From an uncultured Acidobacteriota bacterium (GTDB lineage: Bacteria > Acidobacteriota > Thermoanaerobaculia > Multivoradales > UBA5704): DNA of 64,000 nucleotides. Positions 8,032-26,087 of the stretch are shown piece after piece. The position numbers were made by a program, and so were the translations under genes. How positions within the stretch are numbered: position 1 is the stretch's first letter; every line of letters begins with the position of its first letter. The notes beneath the pieces are model-generated. The model ran no database searches, had not been told where the DNA came from, and saw nothing but the letters and a program-made list of their open reading frames with translations. Where the stretch lies: contig CAVYRF010000001.1 in NCBI GenBank assembly GCA_963770895.1, positions 544,001 to 608,000 of the forward strand, given 5' to 3'.

Positions 8032-8861
8032 GGCCGGGGCGGCGGTTTCGCCACCGCGCCCAACCGCCGCGAAGGTGAACGTGGAGGTGAAGGCGAAGGT
8101 GGGGTGGGCAGGCGGGCTTTGGCCGCGCTGGCGCCGGCGTCGACCGCTCCGACGGTGCTGGCGGCGACGCTGGCGGCGGCGTCCGGGCGCGCCAGCCACA
8201 GCGGCTGGAGGGTGCCGCGCAGTGCGCCGGTGGCGGCGGGGCCGAAGTAGCGGCTGTCGAAGGAGCGAGGATGGGGCGCGTAGAGCCAGACCTCGCCCGG
8301 CGCAAGACGGCGGCGGCCGAAGGCGGCGTGCTGCAGCGGCCGGCCCGCGGCGTCGGCCGGCAGCGGCCGCGATGCCGGCACCAGGCGCCCGCCCAGGCGC
8401 AGGCCGGCCGGCGACAGCTCGACGACGTCGCCTGCCGCGGCCACCAGCAGCTTGCCGAGCGGCCGCACGCCGCCTGGACACGAGCCGGGCGCCAGGTAGC
8501 GCCGGATGCTGGCAAGCCGCGCCGCCGCGGCAGGCGGGCAGACGAGCACCAGGTCCATCCGGCCCGGCGGCGTGGCGCGCAGCAGGTAGAGGCCGCGCGG
8601 CAGCGAACCCGAGGTGTTGTAGCGGACCCCGACCGCGGCGGCGATCGCGATGGCGGCGATGACGAGCACGCCGGCGCCGATCGCGATCGCCGTCCCCGCC
8701 GCCGGTGCGCGAGCGGCAGCGCGGCGCAGGATCGCCCGCCCGCGCCGCAGGATCGACAGCCCGCGGCGCAGGATCGCCCGCCCGCGGCAGCGGCGCCGCC
8801 AGCGGTCGCGCCAGCAGGCCGCTCGCCGCGGAAGCCACGCTGGGCAGGGGGAGCGGTTCAT
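8028..8861 (-). CDS. traF: Conjugative transfer signal peptidase, TraF/S26 family
   Basis: NTSGSLPRGLY (catalytic Ser), CP...RRYLAPGSCPGGVRPLGK (Lys), SFDSRYFGP. Start ATG 8861 overlaps the relaxase stop. Confidence 0.88.
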   Translation of the reverse strand: MNRSPCPAWLPRRAACWRDRWRRRCRGRAILRRGLSILRRGRAILRRAAARAPAAGTAIAIGAGVLVIAAIAIAAAVGVRYNTSGSLPRGLYLLRATPPGRMDLVLVCPPAAAARLASIRRYLAPGSCPGGVRPLGKLLVAAAGDVVELSPAGLRLGGRLVPASRPLPADAAGRPLQHAAFGRRRLAPGEVWLYAPHPRSFDSRYFGPAATGALRGTLQPLWLARPDAAASVAASTVGAVDAGASAAKARLPTPPSPSPPRSPSRRLGAVAKPPPRP

Positions 8862-11800
8862 GGCGCCGGCACTTCGAGAGCTGCCGTCCTGGACAGGGCC
8901 GCGGCGCGCGCGGCGCCCAGCTGCGCGGCGAGCTCGGTCAGGCGCGTCGCCAGGCAGCGCGGCAGGCCGGGGCCGGTCGCGGCGGCGCGCGCCAGCCACG
9001 CCGCGGCCTGCTCGGCGGGCAGGCCCTGGCGGGCGGCATGCGTGGCCCAGGTGAGCACCGCGACGTGGGGCCGCCGGCTCGGCGCTTCCGGGTCCAGGAA
9101 CGCCGCCAGCGGCAGGACGCGGTGAGCCGCCAGCGCCGGCTGCGCCAGCCGCCGGTGCAGATCCGCGTCCGCCGCCTGGTAGCGCGCCACCGCCGCGCCC
9201 AGCCGCGCGACGCTCTGCCAGGCCGGGACTGCGCGGGCGCCACCCGCGGCGCGCGGCGCGCCAATGTCGCCCGTCGCTCGTGCGGCGCGAAGCAGCTCCG
9301 CCCGCGCCGCCCGGTACTCGGCCAGCGACGCGGCGCAGCCGTCCGGCCCGGCCCGGCCGTCCTGGCGCGCCGGCGGGTCCTGGTGCGGCGATGGCGCCGG
9401 CGCCGGTGGAGAGGTGGGTGCGGCGCGCGGATTGGTGCGCAGGGCACCGGCCGGCCGCTCGCTTTCCGCGGACGCCAAGCGCACGCTGGCGAGCAGCGCG
9501 ACGCCGGCGGCTAGCCGGTTGACCGCCTCTGGGGTCAGATCGCCGCGCCGCGCGCGGTCGACTGCCCAGGCCAGGCCGGGCAACGCGCCGTCGCGGCTCC
9601 GCGGCGCGGCGGGCGGCGAGCTGTCCAGGCGCAGCGCCAGGGCGCTTTCCGCCGCGCCATGGCGTGCCAGCGCCGCGTGCAGCTCGCCCGGCACCGGCAA
9701 GGTCGTGCAGGTTGGCGGCGTTTGCACCGCGGGCGTTCTTCGCTGCGCGGGCGCTGTCGGCGGCGCGGGCGTCGTTGGCGGCATGGGCGTCGTTTGCGGC
9801 ATTCGCGGCATTTGCAGCATCGGCGGTATTGCCGGCATGGGTGGCATGGGTGGTGTTGGCGGCTGCAGGGCCGCCACAACCTGGTGACCCGCGCGGCGCA
9901 ACACGGCGCGCGCCTGACGCCGGCCGGCCGCGTCGTGGTCGAGCGCGGCGCGGTTTTCGAGACCGTAGACCTGGAGGCCGGCGGCGCGGAAGCTCGCCAC
10001 GGCGGCGGCGGAAGGACCGTTGAGCAGCTCCGCGGCGGCGCGCTCGAACCGCTGCCGTGCCGCGGCCTGATGCGCCGGCGTTTGCCGCGGCGCCGGCCGC
10101 TCCGCGGCGGCGAGGCGCAGCAGCCGCGCGGCGCGGCCCAGCGCGGCGCCGCTGGGGCGCACGGCCAGGGTGGCTTCGACGCGCTCCAGGTCGCGTCCCA
10201 GCCGGTGGCGGCTCAGGGCGCAAAGCGCCACCGTCAGCTCGCGCTGCCAGGCGTCGGCGCGGCGCAGCCAGCGCAGGCTCCGCGGCTGCCGCCTGGGAGC
10301 GCGACGCGACGGAGAGCCGTAGCCGACCGCGACCACCGCTCGAGATTGCGGCGCCGTCAGCCCGGCGCTGGCCCGCGCCGGTGCCGCGGCCGCATCAGGC
10401 GCTGCGAGTGGACCGGGCACTCCGGGTGCCGCAGGCACACCGGGAGCCGGCGCCACGTCGGGCGGTCTGAGCGCAGCGGGCATCCCAGGCGCGATGGAGC
10501 CGTTGAGCGCAGCAGGTGGCGCCGCCAAGGGCGCCCCGGGCGGACCAGATCCTTCGGTCGCGCTTGGCGCCGCGGCCATGCCGGGTGCCGTGAGCTCGCC
10601 GAGTATCTCTGCCGGCGCCGTCCGTGGGCGCGGCGCGGCAGCAAGGGCCGCCTCTTGCCTGGCGTCGCGGGCGGCGACCAGCTGGCGCAGGGTGCGCTGC
10701 AGCTGCTCTTCGCGGGATTCGAGCGTCAGCTCGGCGGTCACCAGGGCGCCCAGCGCGCTCTGGCGGCGCCGCAGGCCGCCGGCGGTGTCGCGCGCCGCCG
10801 GGCTGCCGGCGGCCAGGGCGCCCAGGGCGGCCAGGCGGCGTGCCGCGTGGCGATGGGCGGCGAACAGCGCGGCGATCTCCGGTCCGGGCGGGCGCCTGGT
10901 GGTGAGGACCGGCGGCGCGCCGGCCGCGCCCGCGGCTGCCGCGCCAGGTGCGGCCGGCACGGCGGGGGGCTCGCGGTCGGAGAGGATCGGCGGCGCCGCG
11001 GGAAGCGACGGACGGAAGCCGTGCGCGGTGGCGAAGTCGTTCAGGCTGCCGCGCAGGCTGCGCCAGGCGGCGGCGGCTTCATGCAGCTGGTTGCCCGGTG
11101 CGGTGGCGGCAAGCGCGGCTGCCTGGTGGAAGCGTGCGGCGGCGGCCAGGGCGATCTCGCGCTGCCGCACGTAGCGCGCGATCTCGCCCGCGGCCAGACG
11201 CGGTGGCAGGGGCGCCTGGCCGACCAGGTCTTCGACCGCGCGCTCGGCCTGCCGCAGGCGGCGCCAGGAATCGACCAGTCTGCCGGCCTCCTGCAGGTCG
11301 CCGGCCAGGTCGCGCGCGGCGGCGCAGCGCGGGGCCAGCTGCTGCCTGGCGCGGGCGTGGTCGTCGCGGGCCAGGCCGAGCCGCAGCACCGCCTGTTCGA
11401 CGGCGGCGCGGTCGGCCCGCGGCGGCAGGGTCAGGCCCAGGCGGTTGGCGGCAAACCGTGTCGCCAGGTCGTCCAGCGCGGCGTGCCATGCGGCTCCGCC
11501 GTCGCCGTCCAGCGGCGCCAGCCCGGCGGCTCCGGCGGCCTCGACGCTCCCGGCGGCCCCGGTAACCCCGGCGGCTCCGGCGATCACCGCGCCGGTGTCC
11601 TGGATCGCCGCCCGCTCGGCCTCCGCGCGCGCCGCCTGCTCGTCCTGCCGGGCGCGCTGGCGCGCCTCCGCGGCGAGCGTGGCGGCGCGGGCGAAGACGC
11701 CTCCGGTCGCCGACAGCAGCCGGCTGACCGGCACGCTGTCCAGGTTGCCGAGCCGCCGCGCGAATGGCGACGGCAGCCCCGCCAGGTGGCCGAACGGCGG

Positions 11801-13144
11801 CGCCGCGGGCGGCGGGCCGGTGCCCAAAGCGCGCGCCGCCGCGGCGTCGAAGATGCGCCGCTCGCCGGCGGTCAGGGCCGCCGCGGCCGGGCCGCCGCGC
11901 AGCCACACCTCGCACGGCGCGTCGGCGCCGGCGCTCGCCGCCACCACCGCGGCCGCCTCGAAGCCGCGCTGGCGCGCCCGCGCCAGGCGGCCGGGCCGCA
12001 CCCCGGTCAGCAGCACCAGGCCGCACGTCTGCGCCGGCCGGATCAGCACTTCGGCGCCGCTGCGGCCGTCCTGGGCCAGGCGCGGCAGCTGCGCCAGCAG
12101 GCGGTCGCGCTCGCATTCCAGCCACAGCTCGCGGGTGCTGCCGCTGGCCGCGTCCAGCACCATGAGGTCGAAGCTCGGGCTGTGCAGCGCCGCCAGCTGG
12201 CTGCCGGCGGTCGCCAGCAGCGCCGCCTGGTCCGGGACGGCCGCGCCGGCGGCCGCCGGTGCCACGCCGGGGTCGGCGCCGGCGCCGGTAGCGCCAGCGG
12301 TGCGCGTGCCGCCGCCGTGGTCGCCGCGGTTGCCGGGGCGCGGCCCGCGCCCGCGGGCGGTGAAGCGATCGCGCGCCGCCAGGGCCAGAGGCAGATCGCG
12401 GACGGGATCGAAGCGCCAGCCGCGGCTGCGCTCCAGCTCGCGCCAGCGAAACAGCGGCCCCAGGCGATGGTCGCGAAAGTGGCGGCCGTCCAGCTCGTAG
12501 ACCATGGCATGCAGCGCGGCGCCCGCGGTCAGCAGCGGCAGCACCTCGACGCCGCGCCGCCGCAGTTCGGCGAAGTAGCTGGAGCAGCCGGTCGCGGCCC
12601 GTGCGGCGGCGGCGATGGCGCTCTGCAAACGGCGGGTCAGCGGCGCCGGCGCGCCGCTCGGCGGCCGCCGTGCCTCGCCGCCGGTGAGCGCGCCGACGCC
12701 CAGGTTCTCGGTCGGCCGCAGGCCGTAGTCGCGCTCGATCCGTGCCTTGACCTGCGCCACGACGGGCAGGGACGGGCCGGTGGCCTGGCAGCGCCCAAAG
12801 TAGGAGATCTCGCAGGCCAGGACGTGGACGTGGCCGTGGCCGGAATCGCGATGCCGATAGACCACGTAGGGGCAGCTCCAGCAGCAGAACGCGCACAGCA
12901 GGCGCTCGACCACCGCGCACCACTGGTGGTCGGCCAGGTGCTCGTCCGGCGCCAGGCGCAGCGCCAGGTGGCGGATCGCGTGGCGCCGGCTCCGCTGCAG
13001 CGCCATCACCAGCTGGAATTCGCCCACCAGCTCGGCGGCGTTGACGCCCGCCATGTTGCCGCCGATGCGCACCGCGCCCGCCTGGCCGGTGACGTACTCG
13101 ACGCTGCGCGCCGCGTCGGCGCTGCGCGCCAGCCGCAGGATCAT
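8858..13144 (-). CDS. MOB-P-type relaxase fused to a RepB'-like primase domain and a long Ala/Arg-rich tail
   Basis: N-terminal EY (Tyr17), IGGNM, HLALRLAPDEHL, 3H motif HRDSGHGHVH, IERDYGL. Central region (~12232-11610) resembles RSF1010 RepB'. Confidence 0.85.
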   Translation of the reverse strand: MILRLARSADAARSVEYVTGQAGAVRIGGNMAGVNAAELVGEFQLVMALQRSRRHAIRHLALRLAPDEHLADHQWCAVVERLLCAFCCWSCPYVVYRHRDSGHGHVHVLACEISYFGRCQATGPSLPVVAQVKARIERDYGLRPTENLGVGALTGGEARRPPSGAPAPLTRRLQSAIAAAARAATGCSSYFAELRRRGVEVLPLLTAGAALHAMVYELDGRHFRDHRLGPLFRWRELERSRGWRFDPVRDLPLALAARDRFTARGRGPRPGNRGDHGGGTRTAGATGAGADPGVAPAAAGAAVPDQAALLATAGSQLAALHSPSFDLMVLDAASGSTRELWLECERDRLLAQLPRLAQDGRSGAEVLIRPAQTCGLVLLTGVRPGRLARARQRGFEAAAVVAASAGADAPCEVWLRGGPAAAALTAGERRIFDAAAARALGTGPPPAAPPFGHLAGLPSPFARRLGNLDSVPVSRLLSATGGVFARAATLAAEARQRARQDEQAARAEAERAAIQDTGAVIAGAAGVTGAAGSVEAAGAAGLAPLDGDGGAAWHAALDDLATRFAANRLGLTLPPRADRAAVEQAVLRLGLARDDHARARQQLAPRCAAARDLAGDLQEAGRLVDSWRRLRQAERAVEDLVGQAPLPPRLAAGEIARYVRQREIALAAAARFHQAAALAATAPGNQLHEAAAAWRSLRGSLNDFATAHGFRPSLPAAPPILSDREPPAVPAAPGAAAAGAAGAPPVLTTRRPPGPEIAALFAAHRHAARRLAALGALAAGSPAARDTAGGLRRRQSALGALVTAELTLESREEQLQRTLRQLVAARDARQEAALAAAPRPRTAPAEILGELTAPGMAAAPSATEGSGPPGAPLAAPPAALNGSIAPGMPAALRPPDVAPAPGVPAAPGVPGPLAAPDAAAAPARASAGLTAPQSRAVVAVGYGSPSRRAPRRQPRSLRWLRRADAWQRELTVALCALSRHRLGRDLERVEATLAVRPSGAALGRAARLLRLAAAERPAPRQTPAHQAAARQRFERAAAELLNGPSAAAVASFRAAGLQVYGLENRAALDHDAAGRRQARAVLRRAGHQVVAALQPPTPPMPPMPAIPPMLQMPRMPQTTPMPPTTPAPPTAPAQRRTPAVQTPPTCTTLPVPGELHAALARHGAAESALALRLDSSPPAAPRSRDGALPGLAWAVDRARRGDLTPEAVNRLAAGVALLASVRLASAESERPAGALRTNPRAAPTSPPAPAPSPHQDPPARQDGRAGPDGCAASLAEYRAARAELLRAARATGDIGAPRAAGGARAVPAWQSVARLGAAVARYQAADADLHRRLAQPALAAHRVLPLAAFLDPEAPSRRPHVAVLTWATHAARQGLPAEQAAAWLARAAATGPGLPRCLATRLTELAAQLGAARAAALSRTAALEVPAP

Positions 13145-13500
13145 GGCCGGTCTCCGGCTTCGGCGCGGCGCGGGGCAGCTGCAGCTGCCGCAAAGCCGAG
13201 CAGCCGGCGGCGGGCGACGACGACGGCATCGGCGATGCGCTCCACCAGGGCAAGATTTTCGGCGCCGCCGCCCCCCTGGCGCGCCAGGCTCGCCGCCAGC
13301 TCCGCCAGCGCCTGGCCGATCTCCGCCAGGCTGCCGGCGACCGCGGCCGCGGCGACCGGCGCCGCCGGCGGCGGCTCGCCGCCGTCCAGGGCCGCCGCGC
13401 GCAAGTACGCCGACAGCGACAGGTGGGCGCGGCGCGCCCGGCTGCGCAAGCGCAGGAGCTGTTCGGGGGGCAACCTGAAACTGATTCCGGCGGAACGCAT
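13141..13500 (-). CDS. mobC: MobC-like relaxosome accessory protein (ribbon-helix-helix)
   Basis: ISFRLPPEQLLRLRSRARRAHLSLSAYLRAAAL; stop overlaps the relaxase start; TAGATT box 7 nt upstream of ATG 13500. Confidence 0.8.
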   Translation of the reverse strand: MRSAGISFRLPPEQLLRLRSRARRAHLSLSAYLRAAALDGGEPPPAAPVAAAAVAGSLAEIGQALAELAASLARQGGGGAENLALVERIADAVVVARRRLLGFAAAAAAPRRAEAGDRP

Positions 13501-13553
13501 GCCGCCCAATCTAGACCGCCGGCCGCTTGCAACGGAGGGAGGGGCGGCGGGGC

Positions 13554-13663: not shown

Positions 13664-15334
13664 TCAGTCGCCGCCGGTGAGACCCTGCCGGCCGGCGACC
13701 AGCAGGCGGTCGGCCAGCAGCTGCAGGTCGGCGATCAGGGGAGACCGGTCACCCTTGCTTGTGACTTCTCCCTGCTCTCTCTGATCCTTCTGATCTCTCG
13801 GACCTCTCCGATCGCTCTGATCTCGCTGGTTTCTCTGATCTTCCAGGTTTTCCTGTTCTCCCTGGCCTCCCTGGCGTCCCTGGTCGCCGGCGTAGATCGC
13901 GTCGCTCGCAGCGCCTGTATAGCCTGGATTGAAGGTATGGGCGGCAGGGGCGGCATGAGTGGCATCGGCGACATTGCCGGCATCGCCGGCGAGCGGCGCC
14001 AAACAAGCCGGCAGCGCCAATCCCAACGGCACACGCAACTCGCGGTGCGCCACGGTGAGCGCGGCGCCGCGGTCGCCCGCGGCGTCGCCATCCATGTCGA
14101 TCGCGGCCAGGCGCCGTGCCCGCGCCGCGGCGGCCGGACAGCCGGGGAAGGCGGCCAGCAGGTCGGCGGCCAGGTCGGCGCTGCGGCCTGGGTGCTGCGC
14201 CCGCAGGCGCAGCTGCGCCTGCTCGAGCGAGCAGGCGGCGGCCTCGGCCAGGCTGCCGGTGCACAACAGGGCGCGGCGCGCCCGGTCGAGCATCGCCTCC
14301 GCCGGCTCGTATTGGCGGTCGAGGGCGGCGATGCGCGCCTCCCACCACAGCCGGAAGGCTTCCTCGCCGGCATCCGCGGCGGCGGCGTAGAGGCCGCGTG
14401 CGGCGCGCAGGCGCTCCCGCGCCTGCTGGCAGTGCCCGGCCAGGGCGTTGCACCAGGCGAGCGCCAGTGCGGCGCGGGCGGCGAGGGCCGGCGCCAGCTC
14501 GGCGTCGATCTGCAGGTGCCCCAGGCTGAGCTCGACGGCGGCCTGCGCGGGGAGCCCCTGCGCCACCAGCACGAATCCCGCCTGCACCCGGCAGGCAGCC
14601 TCGCCCTGGCGCTCGGCGGCGCCGGCGAAGAGGCGCGCCGCCTGGACGAACAGGCCGGCGGCATCGTCCAGCCGCGCCGCCTGCCAGGCGAGCTGCGCGC
14701 CGGCGCCGAACAGCGCGGCGCGCTCTTCGTCGGCGTCGGCCGGCGCCGCTGCAACGAACAGGAGGGCAGACCGATACGCCGCGCCGGCCGCTGCCGGCGC
14801 CCCCCGGCGAACGCGGCCGCGGGCCAGGTGCCAGAAGCCGCGCAGCAGCACCTTGAGGTGGCGCCCGTCGGGTTCCAGGACCCACGGCGTCAGAATGTCG
14901 ATGGCGGTCTGCGCCAGCCGTTCGCCGTACGCGGGATCGTCCAGGGCCTGGTCGGCGCGGGCCAGCAGGGCGCGCGCCACCAGCGGCGGTGGCGCATCCA
15001 GGGCGGCCGCTGGCGCCGCGGCGTCGCCGGCAAGCCCGAGATCCGCGGTCACGGCTGGTACCGCGTCGACCACGGCTGGGGCCGACAGGGCGATGCTGGC
15101 GGGGGCCGGCAGGGCGACTCCGGCGGGGGCCGGCAGGGCGATTCCGGCGGAGGCCGGCCGGGCGATTCCGGCGGAGGCCGGCCGGGCGGCAGAGGCAGGG
15201 ACAAGCTGGTCGGCGCGGGCGAAGGCGGCGCGGATCCGGCGCGCCATCTGGACCAGGTCGAGCGCCGCGATGCCGTCGCAGGCGCCGAGCGCGCCGGCTG
15301 CGTCGTGGGCGGATCGATGCCCGAGCGTCTTCAT
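13664..15334 (-). CDS. TPR-like helical-repeat protein (divergent paralog 1, no zinc finger)
   Basis: GGAGAGG RBS; Ala/Leu helical repeats; shares ALLARA...LA and WWEARIA...AEAMLDRARRALL with the other paralogs; low-complexity PAPAGVAL repeats and a DQR-rich tail. Confidence 0.7.
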   Translation of the reverse strand: MKTLGHRSAHDAAGALGACDGIAALDLVQMARRIRAAFARADQLVPASAARPASAGIARPASAGIALPAPAGVALPAPASIALSAPAVVDAVPAVTADLGLAGDAAAPAAALDAPPPLVARALLARADQALDDPAYGERLAQTAIDILTPWVLEPDGRHLKVLLRGFWHLARGRVRRGAPAAAGAAYRSALLFVAAAPADADEERAALFGAGAQLAWQAARLDDAAGLFVQAARLFAGAAERQGEAACRVQAGFVLVAQGLPAQAAVELSLGHLQIDAELAPALAARAALALAWCNALAGHCQQARERLRAARGLYAAAADAGEEAFRLWWEARIAALDRQYEPAEAMLDRARRALLCTGSLAEAAACSLEQAQLRLRAQHPGRSADLAADLLAAFPGCPAAAARARRLAAIDMDGDAAGDRGAALTVAHRELRVPLGLALPACLAPLAGDAGNVADATHAAPAAHTFNPGYTGAASDAIYAGDQGRQGGQGEQENLEDQRNQRDQSDRRGPRDQKDQREQGEVTSKGDRSPLIADLQLLADRLLVAGRQGLTGGD

Positions 15335-15584
15335 CTGGTTCCTCTCCGCAAAACCACATCACCCAATCCGGCAGCGTGGAGCCCGCGCGTCCGCCAGAAG
15401 GCGCATCGAAGTGTCACACCAGAGACAAATTCTTACAACATATAAGGCAATTCGTCAAATCGACATCATTGAAGTCGGGCATTTGCCCAGAATTCATGTC
15501 CTCCTTCGCGGCATGATTTGTTGCCGCAGCGGTCACGTTAGTCCTTAACTCGCGCACCTATTAAAGCAAGGCCGCCGGGGTCGG

Positions 15585-15613
15585 TTGACTTGATTGCGCG
15601 CTTGCGTTAAAAG
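15585..15613 (+). promoter_or_regulatory. Possible sigma70 promoter for the peptide gene (TTGACT-N17-TAAAAG)
   Basis: Lies in the AT-rich divergent spacer 15400-15630; -35 matches 5/6, -10 matches 4/6. Confidence 0.35.
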
Positions 15614-15737
15614 TTCAACTTAGGCGATGCGGGCGACATCTGGTTTCGCGACCGGCCGGCAACTCGGGTACGAATGCCGTGGGCGGGCGCGGCCATGTCC
15701 GGTCGCGTCCGGCCTGCGGAGTAGGGAGGGATCTCTC

Positions 15738-16070
15738 ATGTCAAAGTCAGGATTTCGGGTCAGTGTTGTCGTCCTTGCTCTCGCCCTGGCGGCGTCGATG
15801 GTGAGTCCAGGGCAGGCTGCCCAGCGTGCGGCGGCGGCGTCGCAGCCGGCCTCTCACTCATTGCTGGATCGCCTGGTCGAAGGCCTGCCAAGCGGCCTTT
15901 TGCGCCTGCTCGGCCTGCCGGAGCCCGCGGCGCGCGGTGCGTCCGGCGCGCACGTGACCAAAGGCGCGACCGGAGCGGGCAGGGTGTTGGCGTCGCCGAC
16001 GTCCACGGCCAGCTCCGGCGCGGGCAGCAATCCCAACGACTCGGGCGCCTGGATCGATCCAAACGGCTGA
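15738..16070 (+). CDS. Small secreted protein / candidate signalling-peptide precursor 1 (110 aa, ends NDSGAWIDPNG)
   Basis: AGGGAGGG RBS; Sec signal MSKSGFRVSVVVLALALAASMVSPGQA; amphipathic SLLDRLVEGLPSGLLRLLG; Gly/Ser linker; distinctive C-terminus. Confidence 0.8.
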   Translation: MSKSGFRVSVVVLALALAASMVSPGQAAQRAAAASQPASHSLLDRLVEGLPSGLLRLLGLPEPAARGASGAHVTKGATGAGRVLASPTSTASSGAGSNPNDSGAWIDPNG

Positions 16071-16110
16071 GCGTGGCAACGACCGCGGCAAGCTGCGCAG
16101 CGGTTTCCGT

Positions 16111-16156
16111 CCAGAGCTCCTTGGGCAGGGGGCAATGTGCCCCTGCCCGCCTCTGG
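16111..16156 (+). terminator. GC-rich hairpin between the peptide gene and the ZAS-TPR gene
   Basis: gggcagggg (16123-16131) pairs with cccctgccc (16140-16148); outer ccagag pairs with ctctgg. No U-tract, so it may be a stabiliser or attenuator. Confidence 0.45.
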
Positions 16157-16229
16157 GCAAGGCAATACAGTTTGTGAGAGAATATTGAGCAGCGCAAGTA
16201 TCCTGATTACCTGGGAGGGAAACTTGAGC

Positions 16230-17606
16230 ATGCACGAAGAGCACCCATCTGATGCAGTTTTGCAGCGCTTCGTCCGCGGCGAGCTGACCCGCGACGCCGC
16301 CAAGGCGGTGGTCGCGCACCTGCTCGCAAAGTGCGACGTGTGCCTTGCCCACATTGAAACGCTGGAAATCGAGGCGCGCTGTCACGTCTCCCTGCCTGGC
16401 CGGCGTGCAGCCCCCGATCCGACCTCCGAAAGCGCGTACGACATGGCGATCGATCGCGCTGTCGCGGGTCTGTTCCTGCACGGCGACGGGGTGCTGCAGA
16501 AAAAGCAGCAGGCCGGGCAGCTCAAGCAGCTGCTGGCCCAGGGAGGTCTGCGCAAGGCGCGCGAGCATCCGATGTGGGGTGCCACCTTCGCGGCGTACGA
16601 CGCCCTGCTCAGCCGCGCCTGGGAGATCCGCTATGCCCGCATCGGGGAAATGATCGAGCTCACGCGGCTCGCCTGTTTCGTCGCACCCAAGCTCGGGCGC
16701 GAGGGGTACACCCCGCGCCAGGTCGCGGACTTCAGTGCCAGGGCCTGGGGCGAACACGGCAATGCGCTGCGTATCGCCGACCGCTTCGGCGAAGCCGAAG
16801 AGTGCCTGGACCGGGCGATCAGCTGCTGGCTCGAAGGGACGCGCGATCGCTTCCAGCAGGCCCGCCTGATGCATTTCACCGCCTCCCTGCTGGGCGATCA
16901 GCGGCGCATCGCGGAGGCGACGCAGTACATGACCGAGGTGTGCGACCTCTACCTCGACCTGGGAGATCGCCACAGCGCCGGCAAGGCCGTGGTCAACCTG
17001 AGCCTGTACGTCGGCGAAACCGGGGATGCCGTCGAAGCGACGCGGTTGGCCGACCGTGCGCTGTCGCTCCTCGATCCGCGGCAGGAACCCGAGCTGCAGG
17101 CCTTCGCCCTCTACAACAAGCTGCACTTCCTGGTGGAGGGGGGGAGCTTCCGCGAAGCGCGTTCCGGTCTCTGGAAGCACCGCCGTCAGATCGCGGAGCT
17201 AGGCCAGGCCGGTCAGATCAACAACGTCAAACTGTCGTACCTGGAGGGCCGCATCAACGCCGGGCTGGGGGAACTGGACCGGGCCGAGCGCCAACTGAAA
17301 CAGGCGCTGGCGGACCTTGAAGCCAAGGAGATCCCGCTGTTGCAGTCGATCGTCTCGCTGGAGCTGGCCGCGGTCTGGATGCTGCAGGGACGCGCCGAAG
17401 AGGCACGCGCCCTGGCCGTGGAGACGGCGGACCGCCTGTTGCGTCTGGGTCTCGCCGGCGAAGCCGCCAGGGCCCTCCCCATCCTGCGCCGCGCGCTGGA
17501 GCGCCAGGCCGTCACGGTGGGCCTGTTCCACGACGTCGTGCGCTTCCTGCGGCGCGAAGACCACGCCTCCTACGCGCGCTTGAGCCACGACCGCTGCAGC
17601 GGCTAG
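16230..17606 (+). CDS. zf-HC2 (ZAS anti-sigma-like) + TPR protein (paralog 2)
   Basis: GGGAGGGA RBS; MHEEHPSDAVLQRFVRGELTRDAAKAVVAHLLAKCDVC; then ALLSRAWEIRY, DFSARAWGEHGNALRI, YLEGRINAGLG, VSLELAAVW. Confidence 0.85.
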   Translation: MHEEHPSDAVLQRFVRGELTRDAAKAVVAHLLAKCDVCLAHIETLEIEARCHVSLPGRRAAPDPTSESAYDMAIDRAVAGLFLHGDGVLQKKQQAGQLKQLLAQGGLRKAREHPMWGATFAAYDALLSRAWEIRYARIGEMIELTRLACFVAPKLGREGYTPRQVADFSARAWGEHGNALRIADRFGEAEECLDRAISCWLEGTRDRFQQARLMHFTASLLGDQRRIAEATQYMTEVCDLYLDLGDRHSAGKAVVNLSLYVGETGDAVEATRLADRALSLLDPRQEPELQAFALYNKLHFLVEGGSFREARSGLWKHRRQIAELGQAGQINNVKLSYLEGRINAGLGELDRAERQLKQALADLEAKEIPLLQSIVSLELAAVWMLQGRAEEARALAVETADRLLRLGLAGEAARALPILRRALERQAVTVGLFHDVVRFLRREDHASYARLSHDRCSG

Positions 17607-17623
17607 TACAGGTAAAGCCGGCC

Positions 17624-17695
17624 GATCGGCCGGCAGGGTGCAGGCAAGGTGGTGAACGTCGATCGCCGGCAGGGTGCCGGCAGGTGGTGAACGTC
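17624..17695. repeat. Imperfect tandem duplication (~36 bp x 2) between convergent genes
   Basis: gatcggccggcagggtgcaggcaaggtggtgaacgtc followed by gatcgccggcagggtgccggcaggtggtgaacgtc. Confidence 0.8.
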
Positions 17696-18125
17696 AGTCG
17701 CGCTCGGTCGCGGCGCCCTCGCGCTCACCGCGATCGCCGCGCTCACCCCTCTCACCCCTCTCATCCCTCTCACCCCTCTCACCCCTCTCACCCCTCTCAG
17801 GCATCGAGTGCGGCATGTCGGCCGCGCGCAAAGCGGTGAGCAGCTCCACCTGGGTGTTGATCTTGCGCACCAGCGCGCTGGGTTCGGGACTGCTGGCAAA
17901 GACCATCTTCATCACTTCCAGGGGGTGGATCTCGATCGCGTCGGCGAGCTCGAACAGCTGCCCGATCTTCAAGCTGGCATCGCCTTGCAGCACGCGCCGG
18001 ACCAGGTATTCACGCCCGTTGTGAAGGCGCCGGCCGATCTCCCGCTGGGTGAGTCCGGAGAGCCCGATCAGCGTCTGCAGCACCTCAAGAACTCGCTGGA
18101 CTCTGGGGTCGTCGTTCTCGCGCAT
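17694..18125 (-). CDS. XRE-family HTH regulator with an (ERG)n tail
   Basis: LQTLIGLSGLTQREIGRRL...VRRVLQGDASLKIGQLFELADAIEIHP; a 9-bp ctcacccct microsatellite encodes the tail. Confidence 0.8.
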   Translation of the reverse strand: MRENDDPRVQRVLEVLQTLIGLSGLTQREIGRRLHNGREYLVRRVLQGDASLKIGQLFELADAIEIHPLEVMKMVFASSPEPSALVRKINTQVELLTALRAADMPHSMPERGERGERGERDERGERGERGDRGEREGAATERD

Positions 18126-18276
18126 GACTAGTCAAGTCTAAGCCAGCACTGGCACTTTGTCGAGAACTGCCTAAGTTTTCAGGCAGCTGCGAAGAGGGCC
18201 ATTTTGTCGCCGCTCGTGCCATGCGAATGAACCGTGCGGGGCACCAGCACGATGCGGCGGTCTATGATGCGCTGCG

Positions 18277-20160
18277 ATGAATCCTTCGAGCGATGGCGTG
18301 GCGCGGGGCGGGGCGGCGCCGTCGCCCCGCCGGCTGCCGGCCGGGCTGGCGTTGTTGCTGGGCGCGGTCGCGGCGTGGGGTGGATGGTTTGTGTTCCGGT
18401 CGTCGCTGCTGGTCGGCGGGCGGCGGGTGTTCTGCCTGTTCGACGACGCGATGATCTCGATGACCTATGCGCGCAACCTGGTCGAAGGGCACGGCCTCAA
18501 TTGGGCGCGCCGCGGCGCGCCGGTGGAAGGTTTCACCCATCCGCTGTGGACGGCGATGATGGTGCCGGTGCAGCTGCTGCCTCTGCCGCTCGACCGCCGG
18601 GCGCTGGTGGTGCAGGCCGTCGCGCTGGCCGTCCTGCTGCTCCACGTGGTCGTCGTGCGGCGGCTGGTGCTGCGGCATTTCAGCCTGCCGCTGGCGCGCC
18701 ACTGGGCGCCGGCCGCGGTGGCCACGGCGTTTTACTTTCCGCTGGCCTTCTGGACTCTGATCGGCATGGAGACCGGCCTGCAATCGCTGCTCACCACGAT
18801 CTCGGTGCTGCTGGCCCTGGACATCGTGCACCGCCGCCGCGACCGCCGCTGGGCGTTGGCCCTGACCGGCGTGGCGGCGGTGCTGCTGCGCCTGGACATG
18901 CTGGTGTGGGTGCTCGCCGTGCAGGGATACGTCGCCGTGTGCGGCCGCCGCACCGATCCTCCACGGCCGCCGGCGCCGCGTTCGTCGACGTCGCCAGAAA
19001 CCGTGCGGCCGCCGGCGGCCGCGCTGCCCGCGGTGCGCGGCACCTGGCGGCTGGGCGTGACGCTGCCGCTGGCGGCGCTGGCTGCCTACGGGGTGTTCCG
19101 CTGGGTCTACTTTGGCGCCCTGCTGCCCAACACCTATTACCTGAAGCTGGGCGGTGTGCCGCTCGCGGTGCGCCTGCTGCGCGGCGGCAGCACGCTGCTC
19201 GATACGCTGCGCGCGTACGGCCCGCTGCTGCTGGTGGTGGCGGTGGGGGTGATGCCGCCGCTCGCCGCCCTGCGCCGCTCCGCCGCCGCCCGCGCCGGCA
19301 CCGCGCAACGCCGGTGGGGCGAGCGGCTGGCGCTGCCGGCGCTGCTCTTCGTGCTCGCCTGCGCCTACAGCGTCTATGTCGGCGGTGACGCGTGGGAGGG
19401 CGAAGTGAGCGCCAACCGGTTCGTTGCCTTCGCCATGCCGCTGGTGTTCGTGCTGGCCAACGGCCTGCTCAACCGGGCGCTGGCGGCGTGCGTGGCGCTC
19501 GCCCGCGCCGCGCGGTGTCTGCGTCGGCGTCAGCGCCGTCAGGGCGGCGGCGCGGCGGCGGCGGGCCAGGCTCCGCCGGTGCGCTACGCCGTCGTCGTCG
19601 CCACCGTGGCGCTGCTGTTCGCGGCCGACGGGTTGGGCAGCCGCGCCACCGCGGGCGAAGCCTGGCGGCGCCTGGCGGTGATCACGCCGCCGCTGCACGC
19701 CGCCAACTACGAGCAGCTCCTCACCCAGCTGCGTCAACTGCAAACCTATGCCGATCCGACTGCCGCGGTGGCTGTGACGTGGGCCGGCACCACCGCCTAT
19801 TTCAGCGATTTTCAGATGATCGATCAGCTGGGCTACAACGACAGCTATATCGCACACCGCCCGCCGGCGCTGGCCTTGAGCGAAGACAACTTCGGCGATT
19901 TCGTGCCCGGCCACGTCAAGTGGGACATCGCCTACGTCCTGGACCGGCAGCGCCCGGACGCCTTGCTGGGAATCTGGGGCGACGAACCCACCCGGCAGGC
20001 GCTGCTGGCGCACGGTTATCTGCGCCTGGACGGCACCTGGGTCAACCCCGACTCGCCCAAGCTGCACCTTTCGCTCGATGCCGTCGGTCGCCTTGATGAT
20101 GGCGATGACGACGACACCGGCGGCGACGCCGCCGCCGGGTCCGGGTCAGGGTCGGATTAG
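18277..20160 (+). CDS. GT-C membrane glycosyltransferase (AftB-like)
   Basis: DDAMISMTYARNLVEGHGLNW...VEGFTHPLW, GMETGL, LLRLD, LLPNTYYLK, VGGDAW, IDQLGYND..IAH, PGHVKWD. Confidence 0.85.
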   Translation: MNPSSDGVARGGAAPSPRRLPAGLALLLGAVAAWGGWFVFRSSLLVGGRRVFCLFDDAMISMTYARNLVEGHGLNWARRGAPVEGFTHPLWTAMMVPVQLLPLPLDRRALVVQAVALAVLLLHVVVVRRLVLRHFSLPLARHWAPAAVATAFYFPLAFWTLIGMETGLQSLLTTISVLLALDIVHRRRDRRWALALTGVAAVLLRLDMLVWVLAVQGYVAVCGRRTDPPRPPAPRSSTSPETVRPPAAALPAVRGTWRLGVTLPLAALAAYGVFRWVYFGALLPNTYYLKLGGVPLAVRLLRGGSTLLDTLRAYGPLLLVVAVGVMPPLAALRRSAAARAGTAQRRWGERLALPALLFVLACAYSVYVGGDAWEGEVSANRFVAFAMPLVFVLANGLLNRALAACVALARAARCLRRRQRRQGGGAAAAGQAPPVRYAVVVATVALLFAADGLGSRATAGEAWRRLAVITPPLHAANYEQLLTQLRQLQTYADPTAAVAVTWAGTTAYFSDFQMIDQLGYNDSYIAHRPPALALSEDNFGDFVPGHVKWDIAYVLDRQRPDALLGIWGDEPTRQALLAHGYLRLDGTWVNPDSPKLHLSLDAVGRLDDGDDDDTGGDAAAGSGSGSD

Positions 20161-20840: not shown

Positions 20841-22646
20841 ATGGATGCCCCAGCCTCGCCGCGACCCGGTGCGACCCGCGTCGCCCCCCCTGCCGACGGC
20901 GCCGGCGAGACCAGTAAAGGTAGGGGCAGCGGTGGCAGCGCTGGCATTGCCGGCACTGCCGCCATCGCCGGTATCGCGGTCGTCGGCGCCTGGGTGGTGA
21001 TCGCGGCGATCCTTGCCGCTCGCCTGGCCGGCATGAGCCTGGACGACTTTTACATTACCTATCGCTATGCCTTGCACCTTGCGCACGGCCAGGGCTTCGT
21101 CTTCAATCCGGGCGAGCGGATCTTCGGCCTCACCAATCCCGGCTTGGCGCTGCTGCTGGCGGCGGCGGCCTGGCTGACGCGGGTGCCGGTGCCGGCGCTG
21201 GCGACCGCGGTGTCGGGCGGTGCGCTGGTGATCCTGGCCGGCCTGCTGCTGCGGAGCGCCGCGCGGACCGGGCGGTTCGTTGAAGCCGCCGGCGCCGGGA
21301 CGCTGGCGGTCACCTCGTCCTACCTGTGGGCGCTCCAGGGCGGCGAGGGTCTGCCGATGCTGGCGCTGCTCGCCGGCGCCGCCGAGCTTGCCGCGGCGCA
21401 CCCGCTGGCGGCCGGAGCGCTGGCCGGAATGGCCGTCTGGTTCCGGCCCGAAGCGGCGCTGGGCGCCGGTCTGCTCTGCCTGCTGGTGTGGCGCCAGGAG
21501 CGCCGGATGCCGTGGCAGCTGGCCGGCGCGGCTGGTCTCGTCGTCGCCCTGGGGCTGGCGGCGGCGGCGCTGTACTTTCGCACGCCGATCCCCAGCTCGC
21601 TGGCCGCCAAGCAGGCGATGGCGGCGGCGGGAGTGGCCGGCGCGCAGGCGGGGCCGGTGCGGTTCTGGCTGCGCTCGGTGCGCCTGGTGGCGCACCATTT
21701 CGGACCGCTCTGGCCGCTGCTGGTGGCGCTGGGGCTTGCCGGCCTGGCGCCTCTCTACGCCGCCGGCGGGCGCGCCGGCAAGCTGCTGGTGCTCTTCGCG
21801 CTGGCCCTGGCGGTCTTCTATCCGTTGAGCGGCGTGCCGTGGTTTCCGTGGTACACGCTGCCGGTCGTGGTGGCGCTGCTCTACGGAATGGCTTTCGCGT
21901 TGGGCGCTGTCGTTCGCTGGGGTTGCTCGGGCCGCTGGGGGCGCTGGCGTCGCTGGAGCCTCTGGGGCGCCGGCCAGCCGCGCCCGCGTCCGCGCCCCGC
22001 AGGCGCCGGGCGCGGGCGGCGCCCTGTGCTGGCGACGCTTCTGGCGCTGGCTCTGGCGGCGCCGATCGGCGTGTCGCTGGCGCCCGCCTGCTGGGGCTGG
22101 CACCGCGCCTTCGACTGGCCGCCGTTCATGCGGCGCTACCGCGCCGCCGGCCAGTGGCTCGCCGGTCACACGCCGCCTGGCGCCAGCGTCGCCTACTACG
22201 AGGTCGGCGCGCTGGGGTATTGGAGCGATCGCACCGTCGTCGACCTGCTGGGCATCGTGACGCCCGCTCTCCTGCCGTACGTGCGCCAGGGAGACCTGGC
22301 CGGCGCGTTTCTGGCGCGGCCGGCCGACTACGCGGTGTTCGATACGGCGCGCGGCGGACTGATGCCGGTGGCGGCGGCGTGGTTTCAGGCCGCCTATGCG
22401 CCGGTCGCCCGCTTCGGCGAGCTCACCATCTTTGCGCGCCGGCCCGGCGTCGCGCTGCCGCCACCCGCGGCGCCAGTCCAATCGGGCGCGCCGCCACGGC
22501 ACGCGGCGGCAGTCCAATTGGGCGCGCCTCCCCGGCACGCGGCGGCAGTCCAATCGGGCGTGCCGCCGCCACAGGCGGCGGCGCTTAGCGCGGCACCGGC
22601 GAGCGCAGGAACTGCTCCGCCTCGGCCGGCGGCACCGGCGGACTGA
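20841..22646 (+). CDS. GT-C membrane glycosyltransferase (AftB-like paralog)
   Basis: DDFYITYRYALHLAHGQGFVFNPGERIFGLTNP, WFRPE, PIPSSLAAK, EVGALGYWSDRTVVDLLGIVTP. Start uncertain. Confidence 0.82.
   Translation: MDAPASPRPGATRVAPPADGAGETSKGRGSGGSAGIAGTAAIAGIAVVGAWVVIAAILAARLAGMSLDDFYITYRYALHLAHGQGFVFNPGERIFGLTNPGLALLLAAAAWLTRVPVPALATAVSGGALVILAGLLLRSAARTGRFVEAAGAGTLAVTSSYLWALQGGEGLPMLALLAGAAELAAAHPLAAGALAGMAVWFRPEAALGAGLLCLLVWRQERRMPWQLAGAAGLVVALGLAAAALYFRTPIPSSLAAKQAMAAAGVAGAQAGPVRFWLRSVRLVAHHFGPLWPLLVALGLAGLAPLYAAGGRAGKLLVLFALALAVFYPLSGVPWFPWYTLPVVVALLYGMAFALGAVVRWGCSGRWGRWRRWSLWGAGQPRPRPRPAGAGRGRRPVLATLLALALAAPIGVSLAPACWGWHRAFDWPPFMRRYRAAGQWLAGHTPPGASVAYYEVGALGYWSDRTVVDLLGIVTPALLPYVRQGDLAGAFLARPADYAVFDTARGGLMPVAAAWFQAAYAPVARFGELTIFARRPGVALPPPAAPVQSGAPPRHAAAVQLGAPPRHAAAVQSGVPPPQAAALSAAPASAGTAPPRPAAPAD
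22474..22581 (+). repeat. Intragenic tandem repeat, 3 x 36 bp (VQSGAPPRHAAA)
   Basis: cagtccaa(t)...gcggcgg units at 22474, 22510 and 22546. Confidence 0.85.
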
Positions 22647-26013: not shown

Positions 26014-26087
26014 TCGCTCGAGGCGGCCTGCTCGGCGCCCGAGAGGACAGGCTGCTACCAGGGTTGCGGCGAGGCCGGAGCCTCTCC

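Follow-up and report, generated by a model that had tools for sequence, protein, structure and literature searches.

The gene P0001, which lies in a 64,000-nucleotide stretch of acidobacterial DNA (the window), probably encodes the processed precursor of a peptide signal that is sensed by the adjacent TPR protein. We put the probability of this reading at about 0.55. The pair would be analogous to the RRNPP systems, and to Rap-Phr in particular, without being a member of that family.

P0001 and its family

The protein encoded by P0001 reads MSKSGFRVSVVVLALALAASMVSPGQAAQR...NDSGAWIDPNG*. The gene and its parts are as follows.

15724..15730, + strand: ribosome-binding site GGGAGGG, 7 nt upstream of the ATG, read from the sequence
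15738..16070, + strand: precursor gene P0001, 110 aa and stop codon; the homologue P0002 has identical start and length
15738..15818, + strand: Sec-type signal peptide, residues 1-27, likely cleaved after G-Q-A (own heuristic and hydropathy)
15858..15911, + strand: amphipathic helix, residues 41-58 (SLLDRLVEGLPSGLLRLL; muH 0.57; aligned family block)
15912..16043, + strand: variable Gly/Ala/Ser/Thr-rich linker, residues 59-102, of varying length among homologues
16044..16067, + strand: conserved unit GAWIDPNG, residues 103-110, candidate mature peptide (consensus in 62 and 259 instances; repeated in other precursors)

The N-terminus has K3 and R7, a hydrophobic core of 15 residues and a G-Q-A/A site by our own n-region/h-region heuristic. 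The Kyte-Doolittle 19-mer maximum falls on residues 5-23, and the signal region aligns with the family block P-A-x-A-A. In the mature part the hydrophobic moment peaks only at residues 41-58. The layout described in the earlier note, a 110-aa ORF with signal, amphipathic helix, linker and GAWIDPNG end, is thus confirmed, and a ribosome-binding site precedes its ATG. P0002 is the sole close homologue of P0001 in a search of 5.8 billion proteins (JGI; 87% identity by BLASTP). SGAWIDPNG and the helix are unchanged in P0002, and the differences fall mainly in the linker. A metagenome contig search with P0001 found no relative. In its own genome P0001 has no whole-protein paralogues beyond chance, and its family is visible through motif and synteny only.

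Judged by sequence, P0001 is a member of a large, as yet unnamed family that occurs in soil-type Acidobacteria and has a conserved GxxIDPNG end. Three blocks are conserved in this family: the signal peptide, a usually Trp-rich helix and the unit G-x-x-I-D-P-[N/D]-G. The helix of P0001 is the counterpart of the Trp-rich helix of the family (A-W-x-W-L-x-x-L-W) but lacks Trp, which together with its single unit copy makes P0001 atypical. In this genome, [DNE]P[NDY]G occurs within the last 25 residues of 19 of 1182 signal-peptide-like small ORFs, and the reversed motif in none. The DNA pattern for GxxIDPNG followed by a stop gave 21 matches in 61 genomes of the same family and the backwards pattern gave 0, although samples from related genomes are not independent. 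All 21 matches terminate signal-peptide ORFs of 64-114 aa, and relatives of P0001 span 64 to 131 aa.

A 23-member profile searched against 1.84 billion cluster representatives gave 2068 of them at E<=1e-3 and 128 at E<=1e-10. The best 150 of the 2068 are 68-203 aa long. G..[IVLM]DP[ND]G is present in 130 of these 150 and the reversed motif in 0, a count that is partly circular since the search profile itself contains the motif. At the helix position, 129 of the 150 have W-x-[WFHY]-hydrophobic. In 106 of the 150, no more than 5 residues follow the last copy of the unit. The signal, the helix and GxxIDPNG are kept among homologues while the middle region varies from 0 to about 70 aa, as expected from the earlier note, which had placed the conservation at the C-terminus and not in the middle. 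Its statement that small acidobacterial proteins end in xGxxIDPxG also proved correct, with the consensus G-x-x-I-D-P-N-G and members from Thermoanaerobaculia. Named members are annotated as "hypothetical protein [Thermoanaerobaculia bacterium]".

A chance frame in DNA of 73% G+C, ending in the motif by coincidence, is a competing account of the ORF itself. Many spurious ORFs overlap the region, and third-position G+C (0.78) is only moderately above second-position G+C (0.64). Such a frame would not be expected to carry a ribosome-binding site before its ATG, to have a same-length homologue (P0002) with changes concentrated in the linker, to share three conserved blocks with hundreds of clusters or to show a motif that outnumbers its reversed controls by 21 to 0 and 19 to 0. 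We consider this account close to negligible.

No family above cut-off was found when 28 small proteins were searched against Pfam and NCBIfam at E<=1. Three of the 28 weakly matched TrbC/VirB2 pilin (E 0.024-0.08) in the signal-peptide region, and these matches were rejected; P0001 has no such match and lacks the two membrane helices of the pilins. A C-terminal sorting signal was also rejected, as neither a membrane helix nor a basic tail follows the motif. The classes of sorting signal compared were LPXTG, PEP-CTERM and similar ones. In curated families and in the literature outside subscription journals, no description of the GxxIDPNG family or of acidobacterial RRNPP-type signalling was found.

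Many family members carry the unit more than once. Two to five copies per precursor are frequent; at least two are present in 88 of the best 150 representatives, with identical 8-mers in 31. Examples are RGAGIDPNG, QGSAIDPNG and DKGGGIDPNG, each present twice and spaced by unrelated Pro-rich stretches, and AGIQIDGNG, present three times. The unit consensus is G(-4)-x-x-I-D-P-N-G, and G-x-x-I-D-P-[ND]-G holds for both sets of instances (62 and 259). Of the 257 instances for which the first position could be tallied, 243 begin with Gly. Ahead of the final Gly, 190 of the 259 instances have Asn and 67 have Asp; several copies in this genome have Tyr or Ser there. Succinimide formation at Asn-Gly, on which the earlier note had remarked, is therefore not a general feature of the unit.

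The near constancy of both ends of the unit would also suit a modified or cyclic natural product, either antimicrobial or signal, for which Asx-Gly would mark the place of processing or cyclisation, by an enzyme or spontaneously, while the TPR protein would be a regulator or immunity factor. Asn or Asp before the final Gly accounts for 257 of 259 instances, and the units resemble the Gly...Asx/Gly sites of plant asparaginyl-endopeptidase-type cyclases. Multi-core precursors, moreover, are typical of ribosomal natural products. However, no modifying enzyme, peptidase or exporter recurs among 52 ORFs flanking the loci of relatives. In 10 of 62 units, GAWIDPNG included, the unit is the exact C-terminus with no recognition tail beyond it, and the Tyr or Ser mentioned above takes the place of Asx. 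We hold a natural product of this kind to be very improbable.

Linkage to the TPR gene

P0001 and the TPR gene are on the same strand with a gap of 159 bp between the stop (16070) and the ATG (16230). In this genome, a TPR paralogue is found no more than 1500 bp from 17 of 19 motif ORFs, compared with 20 of 1163 other signal-peptide-like ORFs. Where loci of relatives were fetched via the TPR protein, a signal-peptide ORF is found directly upstream on the same strand in 27 of 29, and 25 of these 27 ORFs have the motif. When the motif is the starting point, a TPR homologue follows within 900 nt downstream of 18 of the 21 matches.

The 52 ORFs flanking the loci of relatives are otherwise mutually unrelated, implying that precursor and TPR gene travel as a cassette. 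No third conserved gene recurs among them, be it a sigma factor (0 of 52), a protease or a transporter/importer. Note that the phylum-wide search scored five candidates per genome and that its counts are lower bounds. In four genomes from other orders of this class, no upstream motif ORF was found by our own heuristic. A genome contig search with the TPR protein gave one unrelated Bacteroidaceae TPR match only. Elsewhere in the window, a paralogue on the minus strand (38884-39150) keeps the helix and misses the motif, and for this reason the helix might be the functional part.

The spacer between the two genes contains one candidate feature.

16123..16148, + strand: GC-rich hairpin with a 10 bp stem and no T-run (intergenic; weak basis)

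It is a possible attenuator or partial terminator. The folding of the whole intergenic spacer is no better than that of shuffled sequences (z = -1.17), and a promoter/terminator scan found no terminator between precursor and TPR gene. Rfam gave nothing at E<=1 for 15300-18300.

A convergent HTH gene (17694-18125) was considered as a partner and rejected. None of its eight paralogues in the genome adjoins another TPR paralogue, and only 1 of the 29 loci of relatives has a counterpart. Mobilisation genes (relaxase, NikA) adjoin the cassette of P0001 and the TPR gene.

The TPR protein as candidate receptor

The downstream gene encodes a protein of two parts.

16230..17606, + strand: zinc anti-sigma-like/TPR protein, 458 aa, cytoplasmic, candidate receptor (TPR_12; AlphaFold2)
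16230..16379, + strand: N-terminal zinc anti-sigma-like domain with H5, H30, C35 and C38 (alignment and profile matches)
16431..17567, + strand: TPR superhelix, residues 68-446, candidate peptide-binding sensor (model and structure comparison)

TPR_12 is matched with 31.8 bits (cut-off 30.1), and the AlphaFold2 model is all helical with a pLDDT of 87.4. By a heuristic the protein has no transmembrane segment: its KD19 maximum (1.44) lies inside a TPR helix, and its N-terminus is taken up by the zinc domain. H30, C35 and C38 are invariant in all 25 aligned proteins. The canonical zinc anti-sigma motif is H-x3-C-x2-C, while the spacing here and in most relatives is H-x4-C-x2-C, with H-x3-C in 3 of 25. 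The N-terminal 50 residues match DdvA (8rlz, E 1.9e-6), ChrR (2q1z/2z2s, E 1.8e-3) and 3hug (E 9.7e-3), and NCBIfam ChrR is matched weakly (E 0.0069). Pfam zf-HC2 is reached at E<=1 by 7 of 25 relatives, the window protein not among them. Of the 40 Sigma70_r2 proteins of this genome, the nearest to the window TPR gene is encoded 16.7 kb away, and an ECF sigma gene lies within 1.5 kb of 3 of 19 zinc-domain paralogues.

In other paralogues an XRE helix-turn-helix replaces the zinc domain (TPR fused to HTH_3 in 7 of 7 tested). These XRE-TPR paralogues flank precursors with DP[ND]G units, in which three to four Cys-flanked C-x-x-DP[ND]G-x-x-C loops are found. Such loops resemble a folded, disulfide-stabilised repeat protein, and the small protein may be the regulated product instead of the signal. 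The TPR protein would then sense some other cytoplasmic cue and control the upstream exported protein, which would act in the periplasm or outside (e.g., a matrix, adhesion or metal-binding factor of turn repeats). The co-oriented pair with the small gene first is what an autoregulated operon looks like, and conservation extends beyond the C-terminal unit to the entire mature protein, helix included. A regulated product, however, does not explain why positions -3/-2 vary between paralogues yet are identical between copies in one precursor, why the copies are separated by unconserved Pro-rich spacers or why the regulator is kept beside one tiny target in at least 18 of 21 motif-first matches. 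The complex prediction described below, though weak, also favoured contact (0.59 against 0.01 for the best control). This explanation is possible and in our judgement rather unlikely.

The fold of the TPR protein was compared with known structures. The best match overall is eukaryotic LGN (5a6c; Z 26.7, rmsd 3.7, 326 aligned; Foldseek E 4e-7). The best bacterial match is NprR-NprX (4gpk; Z 21.7, rmsd 4.6, 290 aligned), and the phi3T Rap-pheromone complex (8rsv) gives Z 20.8 with rmsd 4.8 over 301 aligned. As Z is 19-21 for Rap, 24-27 for LGN and 18-19 for the TPR subunits of APC/C, the match does not discriminate RRNPP receptors from other TPR superhelices. No homology to Rap, NprR, PlcR, PrgX, Rgg or AimR was found; Pfam and NCBIfam gave only generic TPR and weak NsdA-like matches, and phmmer against PDB sequences gave no RRNPP receptor at E<=10.

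For the complex of TPR residues 68-458 with P0001 residues 76-110, the prediction scored 0.59 (runs 0.50, 0.68 and 0.59), the best of three controls scored 0.01, and the verdict was "weak support". Of 157 solved complexes 116 reach the mark, as do 2 of 215 mismatched pairs, but scores of 0.60 or under include 18 of the 157 solved complexes and both passing mismatches. Unless there is a good prior, passes in this band are wrong more often than right. Contact agreement between the runs was at least 43% and partner pLDDT at least 38. Since TPR-peptide complexes have been solved, resemblance to them may account for part of the pass.

The same pass applies equally to contact before export. The TPR protein would in that case read the C-terminus before its export, either as a chaperone in the cytoplasm or as a switch coupled to secretion, and the system would report export capacity, not cell density. 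Both proteins are made in the cytoplasm, making re-import unnecessary, and TPR domains often clamp C-terminal peptides. A motif within 5 residues of the end, as in 106 of the 150 best representatives, suits recognition of a free C-terminus. Internal copies far from the C-terminus are nevertheless common (88 of the 150 are multi-copy), and at least 20 paralogous pairs with differing -3/-2 in one genome would be odd for a housekeeping export sensor. We regard contact before export as improbable.

Proposed signalling and comparison with known systems

If P0001 is a signal precursor, as we favour, it would be exported by Sec and its signal peptide would be removed. Proteolysis would then free the conserved unit (here about GAWIDPNG), as conservation and repetition of the unit suggest, and two to five copies would be freed per precursor in other family members. 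The peptide would re-enter the cell, where the 458-aa protein would bind it in its TPR groove. The activity of the N-terminal module would change in response. Since this module is zinc anti-sigma-like, an ECF sigma factor is likely to be captured or released as the output, whereas XRE helix-turn-helix paralogues would bind DNA directly. Rap proteins likewise let go of a bound partner on binding Phr. The Asx-Pro-Asx-Gly core is probably a tight turn and the constant recognition element, and positions -3/-2 (A-W here) would set the specificity among the approximately 20 pairs in the genome. The genome carries two Opp/Dpp-type binding-protein genes (SBP_bac_5), an observation that is no test of peptide re-entry.

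The proposal of a released ligand such as GAWIDPNG goes back to the earlier note and is supported in part. Repeated and identical units and the tight linkage to a cytoplasmic TPR protein fit such a ligand; its release, uptake and binding are steps that we infer. A simple model of the Phr/AimP type, to which the earlier note had likened the precursor, leaves the family-wide helix unexplained.

The RRNPP signature of PMC10075063, which is based on Bacillota examples, comprises an intracellular TPR receptor of 250-500 aa, a gap of -60 to 400 bp and a Sec propeptide of 10-100 aa. Measured against this signature, the TPR protein is of the expected size and type (458 aa, TPR_12) and by the heuristic intracellular (maximum KD19 1.44), and the 159 bp gap falls within the range. 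P0001, at 110 aa, is above the limit of 100 aa, and its putative Sec signal is positive by our own heuristic and hydropathy. The window protein carries neither of the RRNPP output modules (HTH or Rap helical bundle); HTH_3 is present in the paralogues tested.

Rap-Phr, a quorum-sensing cassette of Bacillota and of their phages and plasmids, has a similar layout. It too pairs a gene for a Sec-exported propeptide, a prediction in the case of P0001, with one for a cytoplasmic TPR receptor that has no DNA-binding domain and holds its partner through an N-terminal module, as the candidate receptor here would. Many paralogous pairs occur per genome, mobilisation genes adjoin the pair here, and the fold matches Rap-pheromone complexes with Z 19-21. 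In both, the mature unit (here a candidate) lies at the C-terminal end or close to it, and some propeptides contain it twice; for Rap-Phr, PMC11343458 reports tandemly duplicated pheromones within one propeptide. The differences are that the host here is a diderm (Acidobacteriota), that the peptide gene is upstream of the receptor gene and not downstream, and that the N-terminal module is zinc anti-sigma-like instead of the Rap three-helix bundle. The precursor is also longer (110 aa), and RRNPP propeptides have nothing that corresponds to its conserved amphipathic helix. Sequence homology to Rap families was not detected, and the function proposed here is putative.

The fusion of TPR and HTH is the layout of PlcR, NprR and AimR. 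It is shared by the TPR paralogues with N-terminal HTH_3 that lie beside DP[ND]G precursors, recalling NprR-NprX, PlcR-PapR and AimR-AimP, but not by the window TPR protein, which has no HTH domain. NprR-NprX is the best bacterial structural match, yet its Z of 21.7 is barely above that of unrelated TPR superhelices (18-19). LGN/Pins also has a TPR superhelix, whose inner groove encloses extended peptides, but these are eukaryotic polarity proteins with 15-18% identity, and the likeness is of fold, not of system. With ChrR, DdvA and zf-HC2 anti-sigma factors the window protein shares N-terminal profile matches and the conserved His/His/Cys/Cys, and a minority of its paralogues are beside ECF sigma genes. 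It differs in the mostly H-x4-C-x2-C spacing, in not reaching zf-HC2 at E<=1 and in having no adjacent sigma gene at this locus. DdvA is transmembrane according to PMC11506125, while the window protein is soluble and fused to a TPR sensor.

A more elaborate version of the signal is a long shot. The unit could become a head-to-tail heptapeptide, cyclo-GAWIDPN, by Asx-specific transpeptidation, with its ends set by Gly -4 and Asx-Gly, or Asn-Gly deamidation could be a clock that limits the lifetime of the signal. Either would gate a soluble anti-sigma factor, and in each genome of this Acidobacteriota class about 20 orthogonal channels would lead to ECF sigma factors or XRE regulators. If true, it would be the first quorum sensing by peptide and cytoplasmic receptor in a diderm phylum.

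In PMC10075063, signalling through an exported, genetically encoded peptide and a cytoplasmic TPR receptor counts as a speciality of the Bacillota and their mobile elements. If P0001 is indeed a peptide-signal precursor sensed by the adjacent TPR protein, the logic of such signalling would extend to Acidobacteriota, which are abundant and poorly understood diderm bacteria. It would also have a new output, an anti-sigma-like domain, i.e., peptide-gated control of a sigma factor. The peptide signature GxxIDP[ND]G would be unusually clean and searchable, and each genome would provide dozens of natural, presumably orthogonal pairs of peptide and sensor.

The proposed precursor and its family

15738-16070, + strand: open reading frame of P0001 (110 codons), a small, probably exported protein

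As read from the sequence, GGGAGGG sits 7 nt 5' of the P0001 start codon (ATG); the window is 72.7% G+C and the genome is 8.16 Mb in 3 contigs. The N-terminus of P0001 is Sec-signal-like by our heuristic, with K3/R7, a hydrophobic core of 15 residues and G-Q-A|A. The protein has only one amphipathic stretch (residues 41-58, muH 0.57), also has a Gly/Ala/Ser/Thr-rich stretch, and ends in ...NDSGAWIDPNG. Whole-length searches find no paralogue in its own genome and, in a set of 5.8 billion proteins, one homologue, P0002 (87% identity, BLASTP). The earlier note had set conservation of the C-terminus against conservation of the middle region; in P0002 the helix and SGAWIDPNG are identical and the changes fall mainly in the linker.

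An alignment of 35 proteins (8 of this genome, and 27 of relatives in which their genes precede TPR genes) has three conserved blocks: a signal peptide, an amphipathic helix that usually reads A-W-x-W-L-x-x-L-W, and [D/E/K/Q]-x-G-x-x-I-D-P-N-G. The linker that joins the second block to the third has anywhere between 0 and about 70 residues. P0001 is atypical, having a single copy of the C-terminal unit (GAWIDPNG) and a helix without Trp. Of 62 instances of the motif, 40 have Gly at position -4, 27 have Ile at -1 and 52 have the Asp; the residue before the final Gly is Asn (38) or Asp (16) in most, and the unit forms the very end of the protein in 10. An Asx-Pro-Asx-Gly sequence favours a tight turn, and of all residue pairs Asn-Gly deamidates most readily. 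Succinimide formation at Asn-Gly, raised earlier for this site, does not hold as the motif's general point: Asn chemistry cannot serve as such, because Asp, occasionally Tyr or Ser, stands in for Asn.

In the genome, [DNE]P[NDY]G occurs within the final 25 residues of 19 of 1182 signal-peptide-like small ORFs, and the reversed motif in 0. A DNA pattern for G-x-x-I-D-P-N-G-stop, applied to 61 genomes of the same taxonomic family, gives 21 matches in 16 genomes (the window's own locus included) and 0 for the backwards control, which bears out the earlier note's mention of small proteins ending in xGxxIDPxG in Acidobacteria. All 21 matches terminate ORFs of 64-114 aa with a signal-peptide-like start.

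None of 28 family members reaches a Pfam or NCBIfam model. Four of seven members looked up are named in databases, all as "hypothetical protein" (two as "hypothetical protein [Thermoanaerobaculia bacterium]"), and a literature search found nothing on this precursor family. Those two names, together with a protein-atlas look-up of the gene next to P0001, assign the genome to Acidobacteriota. A profile built from 23 members and searched against 1.84 billion cluster representatives gives 2068 matches at E<=1e-3, 128 at E<=1e-10 and 0 at E<=1e-30. The best 150 of these 2068 are all 68-203 aa long, and 129 have the helix mark W-x-[WFHY]-hydrophobic. The motif is present in 147 of the 150 and G..[IVLM]DP[ND]G in 130 (reversed, 0), counts that are partly circular because the profile itself contains the motif. 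Within the same 150, the unit occurs in 2-5 copies per precursor in 88, at least two identical 8-mers are found in 31, and the last copy lies within 5 residues of the C-terminus in 106. Repeated units (e.g., RGAGIDPNG, QGSAIDPNG, DGICIDPNG and DKGGGIDPNG, each x2) are separated by unrelated Pro-rich spacers. A Pro-to-Gly variant, AGIQIDGNG, forms three identical units in one precursor (Pro is otherwise invariant) at the related locus L085 (G018:C103), where the ORF ends 653 nt upstream of a TPR match.

Association with a TPR gene

16230-17606, + strand: TPR protein, 458 aa, the next gene, starting 159 bp downstream of P0001 on the same strand

The TPR protein has 44 matches in its own genome, with N-termini of zinc type or XRE type; HTH_3 is above cut-off in all 7 XRE-type proteins tested. 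A TPR paralogue lies <1500 bp from 17 of the 19 motif ORFs, as against 20 of 1163 other signal-peptide-like ORFs, and a motif ORF lies <1500 bp from 23 of the 44 TPR matches. The TPR protein is matched at E<=1e-20 in 35 of 40 related genomes (24/24 in the same family). At 27 of 29 relative loci the TPR start is preceded, at a distance of 54-440 nt, by the end of a signal-peptide-like ORF in the same orientation, where chance would give roughly one locus in ten by our estimate from the density of such ORFs in this genome; 25 of these 27 carry the motif. Taken from the motif side, a TPR homologue (tblastn E<=1e-5) begins within 900 nt downstream in 18 of the 21 pattern matches, and one of the three misses is followed by only 154 nt of sequence. 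The 52 other flanking ORFs are of mixed kinds, and neither a sigma factor nor a protease nor a transporter recurs among them; therefore, the precursor and TPR gene behave as a self-contained cassette. In a phylum sample (five candidates per genome scored), the TPR profile is matched at E<=1e-30 in at least 9 of 301 genomes, all of the same class. By our heuristic, an upstream motif ORF was not found in four genomes of this class but of other orders.

8858-13144, - strand: MobA/VirD2-type relaxase, 1428 aa, with a very long Ala/Pro-rich tail, just upstream of the cassette
13141-13509, - strand: NikA-like gene, overlapping the relaxase gene

These two genes form a mobilisation module 2 kb away from the cassette. 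Among 9 same-genus genomes, one has a TPR-protein match at 51% identity and the best listed in any other is at most 41%. Because of these neighbours and low identities, the focal cassette may be accessory and mobile, and in this it may be likened to many Rap-Phr cassettes. The window also contains:

13664-15334, - strand: Ala-rich protein, 556 aa, encoded divergently from the precursor, with a repeated ASAGIARP/ALPAPAG stretch and no Pfam or NCBIfam match
17694-18125, - strand: convergent 143-aa helix-turn-helix-like protein with C-terminal (E/D)RGERG repeats and a weak collagen-like match; none of its 8 genome paralogues is beside a TPR paralogue
22588-26088, - strand: 1167-aa PAS/GAF-GGDEF-EAL protein (cyclic-di-GMP turnover)
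47068-59754 and 58728-63998, - strand: very long open frames (4228 aa and >1750 aa), third-position G+C coding-like

The TPR protein as a candidate receptor

Pfam finds only generic TPRs in the TPR protein, NCBIfam gives weak NsdA-like and ChrR-like matches, and hydropathy predicts no membrane-spanning segment. An AlphaFold2 model (alignment of 25 relatives; pLDDT 87.4, confident) has a small N-terminal helical domain, disordered residues 50-67, one long helix and a TPR superhelix. Within the N-terminal 50 residues, H30, C35 and C38 are invariant in 25/25 relatives and H5 is nearly so. As a profile, these residues match the solved anti-sigma factors DdvA (E 1.9e-6), ChrR (E 1.8e-3) and 3hug (E 9.7e-3). 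The canonical zinc anti-sigma spacing is H-x3-C-x2-C, and that of most members is H-x4-C-x2-C; Pfam zf-HC2 is touched at E<=1 by 7 of 25 relatives, the window protein not among them.

The best fold match of the TPR part is eukaryotic LGN (Foldseek E 4e-7; Z up to 26.7), followed by NprR-NprX (Z 21.7, rmsd 4.6, 290 aligned) and several Rap-pheromone complexes (Z 19-21). Since unrelated TPR superhelices reach Z 18-19, the predicted fold is compatible with, and not diagnostic of, a receptor of the RRNPP class, which includes Rap-Phr and NprR-NprX. Complex prediction pairing TPR residues 68-458 with the C-terminal 35 residues of P0001 gives 0.59 (runs 0.50, 0.68 and 0.59; best control 0.01), rated "weak support", a range in which (0.60 or under) just 18 of 157 solved complexes pass, plus both mismatches that passed. 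Of 157 solved complexes 116 attain the mark, as do 2 of 215 mismatched pairs. Between-run contact agreement is at least 43% and partner pLDDT at least 38; solved TPR-peptide complexes may have raised the score.

The output at the focal locus would be a sigma factor captured or released by the zinc anti-sigma-like domain. An ECF sigma gene lies within 1.5 kb of 3 of 19 zinc-type paralogues (for one, the genes form a sigma-precursor-sigma-TPR cluster), and none lies within 16.7 kb of the focal locus.

about 34343-34516, + strand: Sigma70_r2 (ECF sigma) match, divergent from a zinc-type TPR paralogue in ORF 32641-34497 (- strand), one of the 3/19
G000:C2:5716541-5721348, - strand, same genome: three Sigma70_r2 matches, a 67-aa precursor ending in FGISMDPNGGG and a zinc-type TPR gene

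The latter cluster is the best place to seek the sigma partner of zinc-type receptors.

Variant precursors and relation to known peptide signalling

38884-39150, - strand: second family precursor, 88 aa, with a signal peptide and LWTKALNFLHSVF helix, without DPxG
37292-38842 (zinc type) and 36068-37288, - strand: tandem TPR paralogues downstream of the 88-aa precursor
G000 C2:3839122-3839592, C2:5556236-5556703, C2:1901571-1901996, C1:2039148-2039573 and C2:4269756-4270250: Cys-flanked precursors, 141-164 aa, with 2-4 units KPQN-x-C-x-x-DP[NDS]G-x-x-C, beside or between XRE-HTH/TPR paralogues

Since the 88-aa precursor keeps the helix without DPxG, the family helix, which has no counterpart in known propeptides, may itself have a function: it may tether the protein to the membrane, be recognised during processing or even be the ligand. 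XRE-linked precursors have 3-4 Cys-flanked loops, which might just as well make up a folded repeat protein.

Five features of this layout fit RRNPP-type peptide signalling. The precursor is exported (Sec-like by heuristic). The short unit is a conserved module that many precursors carry in several copies. Its -3/-2 residues vary among paralogues and are shared by the copies of a single precursor. The neighbouring gene encodes a cytoplasmic TPR protein. The exchange of zinc anti-sigma-like and XRE HTH domains between homologous sensors singles out the N-terminus as the output module. Duplicated pheromones within one propeptide are described for Rap-Phr (PMC11343458). The P0001 unit would be cleaved from its precursor, exit the outer membrane, re-enter the cell and bind the TPR protein. 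The genome has two Opp/Dpp-type binding proteins, whose presence is not evidence of uptake.

The published RRNPP signature (PMC10075063) covers receptor length, TPRs, intracellular location, gene distance and a Sec propeptide of <=100 aa. The focal pair agrees in receptor length, TPR content, intracellular location and gene distance, and P0001 has a Sec signal by our heuristic only. At 110 aa, P0001 exceeds the propeptide limit, and validated receptors have no detectable sequence homology to the TPR protein and differ in output domain. An RRNPP survey treats peptide systems as a Bacillota trait. For these reasons of propeptide length, receptor homology and output domain, the acidobacterial pair is not a member, and by analogy it would work like an RRNPP/Rap-Phr system.
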